Assembly: GCA_964640155.1 (NCBI GenBank)
Contig: CAZXEQ010000004.1
Location: forward strand, 1 to 32,000
Source of the DNA: an uncultured bacterium
GTDB taxonomy: Bacteria; Auribacterota; JACPWU01
DNA: 32,000 nucleotides
Reading direction: 5' to 3'
The notes under the pieces are model-generated. The model was not told the origin of the DNA and did no database searches. It saw only the letters and a program-made list of their open reading frames with translations. Position 1 is the stretch's first letter. Each line of letters opens with the position of its first letter. Positions 974 to 8,227 of the stretch are shown piece after piece. Both the position numbers and the translations under genes were made by a program.

Positions 974-3900
974 ATGAGAAAATCTCTATTTGAATCTCTA
1001 TTAAATCTAATTCTCATCTCTATATTCTTCACTCATTTGTCAGAAATTGAGCTCATTGCAGGCGAGTTTACCTGTCGAGTTATACCTCAAAATACACTTC
1101 AAATTAAAGCCTTAGAGCAGGCTTCCAATATACAACAAAAAAACAGTATAGATCAAACACGTGTAGAACATCCTGATTACATCATTACATTGGACAAATG
1201 GGGCACACAAACATCTATAGAAGAAGGTCCTCGCATTAAAGCAGCTAGAGAGCAAGCACGTAGAGCAGAAGAGCGGGCAAGAAAAGCACAAAAGGCTGCT
1301 TCAAATCTCATGGCCCGATACAAAAAACAAATAGAACAAGAACTACTGAATCAAGCATTAAAAGCAGTCACACTTCAGCCAGCAGTTATAAGCAAAAAAG
1401 GGACTCCATCATCTTTGAAATTAACTAACCAACCTACAACAAATGCATCGGTCCTTCTTACTCAATCCCAAAAATCCATGGCTCAAGCTAAGAGCGCTTT
1501 AGCTCAAGCCGAAAGCCAAATCAAGAACGCAAAGACACAAAGTGCTAAAGCTCAAGCTGAAGCAGCCAAAAAAGCAGCTGAAACACAGATCGCCATTGCA
1601 CAAAAGAAAATGGAAGAAGCAAAGAAAGCCTTATCAGGAGCAAGTGCAAAAGAATTGCGCTCATCTGCTACTCGTGCAACAAGTGCGTTAACAGCAAAAC
1701 AATCTCTAGACAGAGTATTAGCTTCTTCTAGGTCTTTGTCATCCCCGAAGGCATCTATCGGGGATCCATTTTCAAAAATAGATATCAGTAAATTCAAAAT
1801 AACCTTCAAAGGCAACACAGCTCAAATCAAAGATGCCAATGGCAATGTCTTAGCAGAGGCTAAAACCCAAGGGAAAACAGTTAAAATTAACAACAATATC
1901 ACAGGCTCTAAAGTAGACATGAGCTATGGGAGATTTGGATTAGAAAGTCTCAAAGAAGTAAACAAAACAGGAAAAGAAGTTAGAACAGAAAGCTACAACT
2001 ATAAAGTTGATAGAACTGGGCGAGTCAAAGAACTAAATTACTTAATCAAAGATACAGAGCCCACATCCATCCAAACCTCTCAAGGCACTAAGTCCGTCAT
2101 TGCGAGCGGAGCGAAGCAATCTCTCTACGAAGCCAGTGGCACCATCAAATACGATGGCAAAGGCAGAGTCACCTCTAGTGAAGAAAACAAAACACTAAAG
2201 AATAACAAAAAGACCATCTATTCCTTCCATGAATCCTTAACTGGAGTTCAATACGATCGTCTTAATCAAATGGTCTCATTTGAAAAGCAAACATCAGAAA
2301 AAGGTCTTGGGATTAAGAAATACTCTACAACCATTACAAGAGCAGGCGAAGTTGATAGCACAGGCAAACTCTCTCACTACATCGAAAACGAAAGAACCAA
2401 ACAAGGCAAAGTCAAAATCTCTCGTACCTATGAAGCAACTCCTACTTATCAAGGAGACAAACTCCTCAGTGAAAATAGAACATTAATAGCAGAGAAAATT
2501 AAACAAACAAGCAGCTTCTTCAGCAAAGCCTTAAGCTTCTTGCCAACTTTGGTATCCATTTTTGCCCCTGTTCTTGCACCAGCGCTACAAGTCTGGCAAG
2601 TAGCTGCACTGGCTTCAGCGACAACATTTGCAACAGGCCTTGCTACGGGACAAGGCTTCAAACAAGCCCTCTTAGGAGCAGCGATTAGTTTAGGAACAGC
2701 CGTTGTCGCTGCAGGAGTAAGAGGAGTAGCTGACGCAGCATTAACAGGAAGTAAGACCATCAGTAGTGCCTTCACAAGTGCACTTACCCAAAAAGTAGGA
2801 ACCACCAGCATGGAAAGTGCCGTAATGAGGCTGGCTACAACAAGCATCACAAACACATTTGGAGAAAAGCTAGGCCCCGTAGGATCAAGTGTCTTAGGTG
2901 GTGCATTAGGAACTATCACATCTTCAAGACCTGACATGATTGCATTAGGAGCCGTAAAGGGACTTGCTTCAGGTTACATCTCAAAAGCTTTAGGGAATTC
3001 TACAGGTGCACAATTTGCGACAGCGGCACTTGGAGGACTCAGCGACTCTGTGATCGACAATAGCTATAAATCTTATCTCAACAACATGAATGCGATCAAA
3101 CAAGCACCTCAAGGAGCAAAGTTAGAGAGAGAAGGGCTTTATGTTACAGGAGCTACACAAACAACCTCTGATGGAAAAATCTCACACTACACCTTTGATG
3201 GAAAAGAATTTAAATATCAATATACAGAACCTGCCAATGCTGAACTCATAACAAAAATTAGCAATACCTTCACAGGTGTAAGCTTTGCTCCTACAACAAA
3301 AATAACAGGGTCAAAAACACACATCAATGGCCTCACAACCTATTACGATAAACAAGGTAACTTCACATCAGCTTTACCCGACAATCAAATCCCAGTTTAT
3401 GACAAAGATGGAAAACAAATAGCAACACAACTTCCGATATCCATGATGACATTAGGAATGGGATCTAATCTTTATTTTTCTCCAGTATCAGAAGGGGACA
3501 AAACTCTTCATGCAATGGGATATGTTCCAGTGGGAGCAACACCTGTAATAAAAAGTAATACACTTCAAGAGTCCGTCACAATACTATCCAATGGTGACCG
3601 AATCATATTCAATGCCCAAGGTCAGACAGAGGCTTTCATCCCTTATGGAGCAGAAGAATATCGTAATGGAGAAGGAAGAGTTGTTGGCTCATTCTTAAAG
3701 GATCAAGATGGTTCCTTTACATATCTTGATAACGATGGTGTGCAGAGCTACACCATTACCAATGATGGTGAAATCAGACTCTATGATTTATTCAAACCCG
3801 AAGTGGCAGAGTTTGTTGTCCCAGCAGGGGCCACAGCTATTGTGAATGACAATGGAGATGTACAATCCAGTTTTAAACGAGATGGCCTAACACTCACACT

Positions 3901-6847: not shown

Positions 6848-8227
6848 ATGAAAGTGACTCGCATGAGAAAAAATATTGTTTTTTTAAGTTTGATCACGTT
6901 TGCTTGTGGTTCAAGCATTTTTGCAACAGATGGCCCAAGAAGTGCTGAGATTCGATCGAATGATCCTGAACGTTCGAGGGCTTTAGACACAGTTCATAGC
7001 GCAAGACAAACTCAAATTTTCCAAGGGGATCTGCCTGCGTCGGCAAAAGAGGCATTTGACTCTGCTTTCCAACTTTTGAAAAACGGGAAACCCTATGATG
7101 CAATCGATGCTTATGAGAAGGCAATTCATCTTGCATCTAATTCTGCGGATATCTGGATGGAATATACGGGTTGTTTGAGACAAGCACATTGGTTTCAACA
7201 AGCGGCTCGTGCCGGATGGCGTACTATTGAACTTGATCCTAATAGGGTAGGGAGTTGGGGGAATCTTGGAAATGTTTTTACTGAAGCAAGGGCTTGGGAT
7301 GCCGCTACGTTTGCTTTTAAAAAGGCAGAAAGTTTGTCGAGTGATAAGAAATGGGCTGTCCAAAATTTCTTAAATCTCGGATTCCAACAGTGGTGCAATG
7401 GAGAAGGTCAACTCGCTATCAAAACTTTTAGATATGCGGTTGAGAAAGATCCATACAATGGAAAGGCCATTCTTGATTTAGGTATTGCGATGGTTTCAGA
7501 AGGATATGTCAATGTTGGAGTTGCCTTTATCAATCAAGCTTTGTCTACTCTTAAAAAAGAGGAAGGAGCTCAAACCTCGATTCTTTATGCTGAAGCAACT
7601 TTAGCCCAAATTCGCAAAGAAGGAAAGATTTCGCCACCTGTAAGTTCCTTGGTTGCGTTCCAAAAGCTACCTGATAGGTTTCTTAAACAGCCTCTGCCAG
7701 GGCAGGCTCTAAGTCTGGGGGTTGATCAGAGGGCTGAGTGGATTCTTCTGTCATCGAATCGAGAAGGTATTTCAATCAAAATTCCATCCATTTGGAAAGT
7801 CAATCTTTACACACAGGCTTCAGACAAAGTCTCTGCGGTTATTTTTCGCCCAAAAGATGGCATTCCTTTTGAATTTTTCATCAGCCTGCGTTCAGAAAAG
7901 ATGACTCATGAGGACGTAGAAGCTGTTGTTCGGGAAATGGGTCGAGCCAAAATGGTGAAAAGCGTAGAGAAAGATTTGGAATTGATCGAGGTTCAATCTG
8001 CTTTTACCCAAGGTTTTATTTATCTTCTGACAGACGAAGACCTTGCTGGGGAGAAATTGAAGGAAGGGAACTATCTTTACACCCTTGAAGGTCTTGTGAA
8101 AACAGGAAATGTTGTCAGTTACATAACGACTGCAAGTCAGACAAAGGATCAAAAGTTCGTACAAACAATTCTTGATATTCTTAAAAGCATTTCACCAAGC
8201 TACAACACGCTTACTAAAAATGAATAA
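6848..8227 (+). CDS. Secreted TPR-repeat protein with an uncharacterised C-terminal domain
   Basis: The ORF is open from GTG 6812. ATG 6848 gives the classic signal peptide MKVTRMRKNIVFLSLITFACGSSIFA. TPR-like helices include AIDAYEKAIHLASNSADIWMEY, GSWGNLGNVFTEARAWDAATFAFKKA and AIKTFRYAVEKDPYNGKA. The C-terminal ~180 aa has no motif I can name. Confidence 0.65.
   Translation: MKVTRMRKNIVFLSLITFACGSSIFATDGPRSAEIRSNDPERSRALDTVHSARQTQIFQGDLPASAKEAFDSAFQLLKNGKPYDAIDAYEKAIHLASNSADIWMEYTGCLRQAHWFQQAARAGWRTIELDPNRVGSWGNLGNVFTEARAWDAATFAFKKAESLSSDKKWAVQNFLNLGFQQWCNGEGQLAIKTFRYAVEKDPYNGKAILDLGIAMVSEGYVNVGVAFINQALSTLKKEEGAQTSILYAEATLAQIRKEGKISPPVSSLVAFQKLPDRFLKQPLPGQALSLGVDQRAEWILLSSNREGISIKIPSIWKVNLYTQASDKVSAVIFRPKDGIPFEFFISLRSEKMTHEDVEAVVREMGRAKMVKSVEKDLELIEVQSAFTQGFIYLLTDEDLAGEKLKEGNYLYTLEGLVKTGNVVSYITTASQTKDQKFVQTILDILKSISPSYNTLTKNE

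Follow-up and report, generated by a model that had tools for sequence, protein, structure and literature searches.

Tc toxins (TcB/TcC) and teneurins combine YD-type repeats, a beta-propeller and a C-terminal toxic domain, with the propeller lying within the YD polypeptide and closing its cocoon. Another group, the Sec-dependent RHS/YD polymorphic toxins, includes WapA/WapI of Bacillus subtilis. Zhang et al. 2012 listed a Sec-dependent RHS-repeat class of polymorphic toxins and three alpha/beta-hydrolase toxin families, and the occurrence of SpvB with a propeller is described there as well (PMC3482391). Propellers are also found on the partner side: the immunity protein PefE of Proteus mirabilis is predicted to be a bladed beta-propeller (PMC5714391), and effector activity also depends on PefE and, in Enterobacter, on the ankyrin-repeat Tli (bioRxiv 10.1101/2023.03.28.534661). 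Among hydrolase families, DUF900 is itself of unknown function (PMC11878206), and bactericidal phospholipase A activity has been shown for a secreted archaeal hydrolase whose homologues mostly carry DUF900 (bioRxiv 10.64898/2026.06.10.730825). Here we compare with these systems a locus in a 32,000-nt stretch of contig CAZXEQ010000004.1 from an uncultured bacterium (the whole stretch is called the window below), where the gene for a 1493-aa giant protein (974..5455, + strand) is followed by the genes for a 427-aa WD40 propeller (5445..6728, +) and for a tetratricopeptide repeat (TPR) protein (471-aa open reading frame, ORF, 6812..8227, +, with a 459-aa form from ATG 6848). An earlier sequence-only reading of the window had placed three ORFs at these positions, and all three are present in the ORF list.

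With a confidence only slightly above even, we favour the view that the locus encodes a Sec-exported toxin whose DUF900-type hydrolase payload would act on envelope lipids, together with a periplasmic WD40 propeller that would neutralise and perhaps chaperone the hydrolase. The system is most like the WapA-type Sec-dependent YD toxins and the Tle/Tli lipase pairs and is a member of neither, as it has no detectable RHS repeats or Rhs core, no type VI secretion system (T6SS) context and a different Pfam neighbourhood. With the Sec-dependent RHS/YD toxins (PMC3482391) it shares an N-terminal signal peptide, a long repeat-rich body, a replaceable enzymatic C-terminus, a cognate gene immediately downstream, and stand-alone cassettes of C-terminal domain and partner. 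It differs from them in lacking detectable canonical RHS repeats or the DPxGL Rhs core/protease motif, in a body broken by a conserved glycine-zipper block and a presumably helical low-complexity segment, in a partner that is a ~400-aa WD40 propeller, and in a host that is probably diderm, so that the outer-membrane step is unexplained. The T6SS Tle1-4/Tli pairs resemble it in their serine alpha/beta-hydrolase payload, bicistronic coupling, a partner with an export signal implying periplasmic action, and repeat-protein immunity (putative for the window), as in the ankyrin-repeat Tli (bioRxiv 10.1101/2023.03.28.534661). In contrast to those pairs, no T6SS, PAAR or VgrG gene lies in the window, and the hydrolase, which is DUF900-like with no Pfam match to another lipase/hydrolase family, is fused to a Sec-exported giant protein.

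Three further systems were compared. In the PefD/PefE/PefF/PefG system of Proteus mirabilis, likened to the window by description and with no sequence relationship implied, the propeller immunity protein is also needed for effector function and the operon also encodes an accessory protein with helical repeats (PMC5714391; bioRxiv 10.1101/2023.03.28.534661), whereas PefD is a PAAR-domain effector delivered via a T6SS and not a hydrolase on a giant Sec-exported protein. Cinquedea of Haloferax larsenii, also likened to the window domain by description, belongs to the DUF900 Pfam neighbourhood (clan CL0028), is extracytoplasmic and is a demonstrated bactericidal phospholipase A (bioRxiv 10.64898/2026.06.10.730825), but it is archaeal, single-domain and single-gene, with no reported immunity partner. 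Tc toxins and teneurins resemble the locus in bringing together YD-type repeats, a beta-propeller and a C-terminal toxic domain, the repeats being marginal and the toxic domain putative in our case; unlike in those proteins, the window propeller is a separate secreted protein, and the YD content is far too small for a cocoon. The new features of this locus are the mid-body glycine-zipper block, the invariant HPDYIITLD junction motif, the DUF900-type payload and the WD40 partner.

The hydrolase domain and its propeller partner

The propeller gene overlaps the stop codon of a hydrolase-ending gene in all eight independent loci for which upstream sequence is available, namely the window and L005 (same organism), L003, L004, L006, L007, L008, L009 and L015/L016 (labels beginning with P and L denote homologous proteins, such as P0002 and P0003, and related loci, L001-L016, recovered by our searches). 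In the window the two genes share 11 nt, as had been read from the sequence, and a Shine-Dalgarno GAGG (5434-5437) lies inside the last codons of the giant gene, 7 nt before the WD40-gene ATG at 5445 (whole element 5434..5447, +). This arrangement suggests translational coupling of the two genes. One public gene call of the WD40 protein starts instead at the internal Met6; we take the overlapping start to be the conserved one because the L003 orthologue has no second Met and keeps the GAGG...ATG..TAA overlap. In L003, genes for IS3 and Y1 transposases immediately precede a separate 368-aa hydrolase ORF and the WD40 gene, and a stop in the hydrolase frame lies 13 codons upstream. The L015 hydrolase is joined to a different, acidic N-terminal region. 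Across the family, pairwise divergence of hydrolase and propeller is correlated (r = 0.79).

That the second ORF encodes an exported WD40-like protein is borne out by Pfam, in which WD40 (PF00400; 37.9 bits, gathering score 27) and ANAPC4_WD40 (39.2 bits, gathering score 22.9) are matched along with many other propeller families, and by an AlphaFold2 (AF2) model of a seven-bladed propeller with a C-terminal helix (predicted local distance difference test score, pLDDT, 80; predicted template modelling score, pTM, 0.81). In a Foldseek search with this model, the best PDB matches were generic seven-bladed propellers of the WDR5 type (E ~1e-17), which offer no functional clue. Ten specific relatives were found (E < 1e-67, 32-62 % identity), and in nearly all of them a signal peptide is followed by AREHPYF at the mature N-terminus; for the propellers of L006 and L009 the true start lies further upstream than called, which restores a full signal peptide. 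A metagenome scan with the WD40 family added only two more short contigs, both without upstream context. The propeller is a candidate immunity protein, but could equally be a chaperone or activator.

The C-terminal ~310 aa of the giant protein (residues 1181-1493, 4514..5452, +) are, on well-supported grounds of homology, a divergent homologue of the DUF900-type alpha/beta hydrolases that falls short of curated membership. Relatives were sought with residues 1000-1493 in an exhaustive HMMER search covering 1.84 billion representatives and with residues 1150-1493 in a word-based search, and only three were returned: P0006 (368 aa, 55-61 % identity), the partial P0007, and P0049 (E 1.5e-5 over the whole library). 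The last of these acts as a bridge, as it passes the DUF900 (PF05990) gathering score with 33.9 bits against 20.5, and sub-threshold DUF900 matches were also seen for the L006 C-terminal domain (E 2e-3) and for P0006 (E 0.03). When a profile of eight family members excluding P0049 was aligned to P0049 with hhalign, the match had 98.4 % probability and E 5.5e-15 over 208 columns, spanning the HG strand, the nucleophile elbow, the Asp and the His.

These alignments define a candidate catalytic triad in the canonical order, comprising Ser1312 (nt 4907-4909, +), Asp1391 (nt 5144-5146, +) and His1455 (nt 5336-5338, +). Neither Ser1312 nor Asp1391 varies in alignments A4 and A7; His1455 does not vary wherever it is covered, as it is by all members of A4, and the neighbouring His1311 is invariant in A4 only; the nucleophile elbow reads (A/G/V/T)-(H/Y)-S-(M/L/I)-(G/A/F). 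The DUF900 homology and the invariant serine agree with the sequence-only reading, which had proposed a C-terminal hydrolase with Ser1312. PDB searches with the C-terminal family by sequence and by profile returned nothing significant, the profile search giving weak matches confined to the elbow, in a lipase and a thioesterase (E 0.18-0.36). The most likely activity would be that of a phospholipase or esterase acting on envelope lipids.

Body of the giant protein and its relatives

The giant protein as a whole matches no family in Pfam (none at E <= 1) or NCBIfam, including RHS_repeat and the lipase families, and phmmer against the PDB gave no relevant match; PADLOC matched none of the giant, WD40 and TPR proteins. 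A hydrophobic signal sequence or signal anchor occupies residues 1-33 (974..1072, +), with hydrophobicity across residues 3-33 and a mean 19-residue hydropathy of up to 1.69. The homologue P0003 has a clear Sec signal peptide, and its paralogue L011 has a short N-terminus like that of the window protein. At residues 62-90 (1157..1243, +) follows a family signature, (E/S)HPDYI(I/V)TLDxYGTQ..GPR, which is invariant in the window protein, P0002, P0003 and L011 and present in a related form in L006. It forms the boundary between an optional N-terminal YD array and the helical segment, and is found at residues 54-80 of P0002, residues 422-450 of P0003, 6111-6281 of L011 and residue 409 of L006_up. 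In its fuller form, (E/S)HPDYI(I/V)TLDxYGTQ(T/Q)SxxxGPR, this junction motif is nearly invariant and better conserved than any other part of the family. No counterpart of it is known, and it could serve for processing or docking.

Downstream of the motif lies an Ala/Gln/Lys-rich segment free of aromatic residues (residues 91-262, 1244..1759, +), presumed from its composition to be helical or a coiled coil, and a charged segment is found at the equivalent position in P0002, P0003 and L006. Residues 263-505 (1760..2488, +) make up a degenerate YD-like beta-repeat region with weak repeat-HMM (hidden Markov model) matches at 390-404 and 424-438 and weak similarity to the N-terminal YD array of P0003 (E 0.006). 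The next element is a Gly/Ala/Ser/Thr-rich hydrophobic glycine-zipper block (residues 506-705, 2489..3088, +). Both the N-terminal hydrophobic segment and a Gly/Ala block had been noted in the sequence-only reading, and hydropathy and composition bear them out, the latter at residues ~506-705 with hydropathy peaks at 513-550 and 561-592. The block contains 21 small-xxx-small-xxx-small motifs, where the hydrolase segment has 8 and most of the remaining segments 0-2, and is conserved in P0002, P0003, L006 and L007; it is predicted to be a membrane-inserting or translocation segment. Beyond it come beta-rich repeats (residues 706-1000, 3089..3973, +), within which homology to P0002 ends at ~residue 883, and a linker region (residues 1001-1180, 3974..4513, +) for which the exhaustive search matched the window protein only.

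The YD-type repeats proposed for this protein are marginal. An HMM built from 40 clear YD units of the relatives scores 9.7 bits on the window protein against a maximum of 7.6 in 200 shuffles, and a simple YD-type motif occurs in 8 copies against 1.9 +/- 1.3 in shuffles. The window protein has no Pfam RHS_repeat (PF05593); P0002 alone exceeds the threshold of this family, with 26.7 bits (gathering score 22) in an N-terminal array that the window protein does not have. The Rhs core end motif (PxxxxDPxGL, an aspartyl-protease site) is absent from the window protein, P0002, P0003 and L006-L009. A motif scan found no PAAR or VENN-type motif in any family member, Pfam found no two-partner secretion (TPS) domain, and phmmer against the PDB with the window protein and the 2223-aa L006 relative as queries matched no solved Rhs, TcB/TcC or teneurin structure. 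The window protein may thus be called YD-like by resemblance, and is not demonstrably a member of the Rhs family. Membership of the canonical Rhs, CdiA, Tc or T6SS Tle groups was considered and rejected, given that the Pfam families and the Rhs core and VENN motifs are missing.

Among 5.8 billion proteins only two full-length-type homologues were identified, P0002 and P0003, both from groundwater metagenome-assembled genomes (MAGs) labelled Chlamydiae, and both align from the junction motif through the helical segment, the YD-like region and the hydrophobic block. In the case of P0002, residues 57-883 of the window protein are shared at 35 % identity, after which P0002 continues into an unrelated C-terminus of ~560 aa; downstream of it lies an ORF of 180 aa with two transmembrane segments, and neither a WD40 nor a TPR gene. 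The P0002 C-terminus has a Gly-rich hydrophobic stretch of its own near the end, and the next ORF (L001 1-5015) has two N-terminal membrane spans and a Cys-rich tail. Together they could form a second, membrane-targeting toxin-immunity pair on the same chassis. A profile scan of genome contigs with the giant-protein alignment recovered one groundwater MAG with two loci: the MAG of P0003 carries at least two paralogues, the second being L011, in which a short signal-like N-terminus precedes the junction motif. The ORFs upstream of the propeller in L006-L009 also share the architecture of the window protein, over >2223, >1176, >574 and >732 aa, respectively. Genes of mobile elements were seen at several related loci, with two tyrosine recombinases and a primase directly before P0003 (L002 4924-6779 and 2073-4811), an rve-type integrase in L008 (3621-4022, -), and the IS3 and Y1 transposases of L003 (679-2899).

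The giant protein could instead be a resident envelope protein, anchored in the inner membrane by its hydrophobic block. The hydrolase would then remodel lipids or wall of the producer itself, under a periplasmic WD40 regulator and without intercellular delivery. The Sec signal and the hydrophobic block could give an even number of spans, leaving both ends in the periplasm with the WD40 protein, and the lack of a nearby secretion-system gene and of any Rhs, CdiA or PAAR marker would be expected of such a protein. In billions of proteins, however, the family is extremely rare and patchy, with 3 giant proteins, 4 hydrolase matches and ~10 propellers; L002, L003 and L008 are flanked by transposases or integrases; one MAG carries at least two paralogues; and the C-terminus is variable. 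As this combination does not fit a housekeeping function, we regard a resident role as improbable.

Candidate roles of the pair and routes of delivery

The reading that we favour takes the pair as a two-gene cassette of a DUF900-type serine hydrolase and a periplasmic seven-bladed WD40 propeller. The hydrolase would be the C-terminal payload of a Sec-exported giant protein, whose body, consisting of the junction motif, helical segment, YD-like repeats, glycine-zipper block and beta repeats, would present the payload or insert it into a membrane. Translational coupling would give rise to the WD40 protein, whose own signal peptide would take it to the periplasm of the producer; there it would bind the hydrolase and keep it harmless, possibly also aiding its folding. 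What the sequences show directly is the DUF900 homology with its conserved triad, the linkage and overlap of the two genes, the signal peptides of both proteins, one C-terminal swap and one stand-alone cassette, whereas toxicity, the lipid substrate, direct binding, immunity and a delivery role for the hydrophobic block are inferred. The sequence-only reading had proposed a lipase toxin with one or two periplasmic partners, and of this the alpha/beta-hydrolase-type domain, in which a Ser-Asp-His triad is seen, and the pairing with WD40, seen in 8/8 loci, are supported, whereas the TPR protein drops out as a partner.

Several features are shared with known toxin-immunity systems. A conserved N-terminal body with a replaceable C-terminus, as looked for in polymorphic toxins, is seen in the P0002 swap, L015 and L003, which is a very small sample, and a stand-alone toxin-partner cassette is seen in a single instance, L003. 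Our conclusions on polymorphism draw on ~10 loci, mostly short metagenomic contigs. Taken together, the replaceable C-terminus, intact triad, coupled exported partner, transposase-flanked cassette, mobile genes and rarity are hallmarks of polymorphic toxin-immunity systems.

A number of points weigh against this reading. The window C-terminal domain itself has no DUF900 match and reaches no Pfam threshold; position +2 of the elbow is Phe in two members, P0007 and L007; and the AF2 model of the domain, built from a three-sequence alignment, has a pLDDT of 32 and is unusable. Polymorphism is observed on very few sequences, with one C-terminal swap and one stand-alone cassette. No route across the outer membrane is identifiable. 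The propeller is also better conserved than the hydrolase (mean 53 % against 41 % identity), which is atypical for an immunity protein in an arms race and fits a chaperone equally well.

This last point favours the main alternative, less likely in our view, that the propeller is a dedicated periplasmic helper for folding, activation or export and not an antidote, and that the giant protein is an effector or adhesin directed at a eukaryotic host or prey and not at sibling bacteria. The propeller would then be comparable to lipase-specific foldases, or to Tli and PefE, without which their effectors are not active. Its higher conservation than that of the enzyme, the strict translational coupling of the pair and the differences among loci in the exported accessory genes downstream are all consistent with a helper, and there are documented cases in which an immunity protein also activates its lipase or PAAR effector (bioRxiv 10.1101/2023.03.28.534661; PMC5714391). 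In addition, MAGs labelled Chlamydiae, a host-associated phylum, are the source of the closest full-length relatives. Set against this, the window holds a full purine pathway together with NAD and CoA steps, which makes its host unlike the classical reduced obligate intracellular chlamydia that the labels of the closest homologues suggest, and the transposase-adjacent cassette of L003 and the replaced C-terminus of P0002 are signatures expected of toxin-immunity pairs. Chaperone and immunity roles are, moreover, not mutually exclusive.

No secretion-system genes were found among the ORFs of the 32-kb window; VgrG, PAAR, Hcp and TpsB are absent from them, as the sequence-only reading had it, and so is a T6SS adaptor gene. 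T6SS components were likewise not found in the related loci L001, L002, L003, L004 and L006-L009, and of the CdiA/CdiB marks, the TPS domain, FHA repeats and VENN-type pretoxin motif were not detected by Pfam or motif scan, with no TpsB gene in the window. The boldest proposal, an unlikely one, is that the hydrophobic block and its flanking beta repeats form a self-contained translocation device, in the manner of AB-toxin translocation domains, which would carry a DUF900 phospholipase into the target membrane without a type V secretion system (T5SS), T6SS, type VII secretion system (T7SS) or Tc apparatus in uncultivated bacteria related to Planctomycetes–Verrucomicrobia–Chlamydiae (PVC)/Chlamydiae, with the WD40 propeller as a new structural class of lipase immunity protein.

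If the pair is indeed a toxin with its immunity protein, DUF900 hydrolases would join the antibacterial or anti-host lipase repertoire, WD40 propellers would be the second documented case of propeller immunity after PefE, and lineages in which contact-dependent killing has not been known would possess a giant Sec-dependent toxin. The mid-protein hydrophobic block offers a concrete candidate translocation module of a new kind, and if it does act as a translocation device, the delivery route would be independent of known secretion machines. The family is very rare, so that its general importance would be limited unless the delivery mechanism proves to be new.

Downstream genes and the surrounding window

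The third ORF, predicted earlier to encode an exported TPR protein, contains TPR repeats at residues ~75-250 of its 471 aa by Pfam, together with a signal peptide and a C-terminal domain of unknown function. It lies 120 nt 3′ of the WD40 gene on the same strand, and the 459-aa form is the version in the public record. A module of three genes, which had been suggested on this basis, was not upheld by the related loci, as a TPR gene is absent from L004, L006, L008, L009 and L015. The conserved unit is one of two genes, hydrolase and propeller, and the TPR protein is a locus-specific exported neighbour.

What follows the pair differs from locus to locus, and exported proteins of varying kinds are often found there. 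In L004 the propeller gene is followed by a gene for a 117-aa membrane protein and then by an unrelated gene, and in L015 by no gene. The L007 propeller gene shares 4 nt at its stop codon with the gene for a signal-peptide protein that has TPR_12 repeats, and in L013 a signal-peptide protein without a TPR match follows the WD40 gene. Homology between the TPR proteins of the window and L007 was considered and rejected (best BLASTP E 0.059). In L008 (~3325-3450) and L009 (3489-3620), the gene after the propeller starts with a lipoprotein signal (…LTGCAT…), unlike the TPR protein of the window. In L006, the longest related contig, a gap of ~1 kb after the propeller precedes a protein with DUF4062 and HATPase_c_4 domains (8962-10404), an architecture of the defence type.

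A second immunity or accessory role for the TPR protein would draw on its signal peptide, short spacing and shared strand, on the exported proteins that follow the WD40 gene in L007 and L013, and on the Proteus PefD/PefE system, which also needs the armadillo-repeat protein PefF (bioRxiv 10.1101/2023.03.28.534661). Since the L007 protein is not homologous to that of the window, the L013 protein has no TPR match, L004, L006 and L015 have no such gene, and L008 and L009 have a lipoprotein gene in its place, we consider a third functional component very improbable.

Just 5′ of the giant gene lies an NYN-domain protein (199..855, +), which is recognised by Pfam NYN and, with E 2.9e-16, by the PADLOC candidate defence family HEC-09. 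The interval from the TPR gene to valS holds an overlapping type II toxin-antitoxin pair (8587..8790 and 8780..9034, +), with a RelB/Phd-like antitoxin of 67 aa and a ParE-family toxin of 84 aa. The NYN/HEC-09 gene upstream and the toxin-antitoxin pair downstream give the region an accessory, island-like character. The remaining genes of the window are of the housekeeping kind and all on the + strand (valS, uvrB, nadC, birA, coaX, recN, purQ/L/F/M/H/D, GHL10, DUF4416 and DUF1015), including a block of ~20 kb (11958..31277, +) with a complete purine biosynthesis set, purQ, L, F, M, H and D. Rfam and tRNA scans of the window gave no matches. The giant gene (974..5455) shows a strong excess of A over T on its coding strand, with an AT skew of 0.19-0.32 compared with ~0-0.1 elsewhere, and its G+C content is slightly above that of the rest of the window; these properties may reflect an unusual amino-acid composition or a foreign origin.

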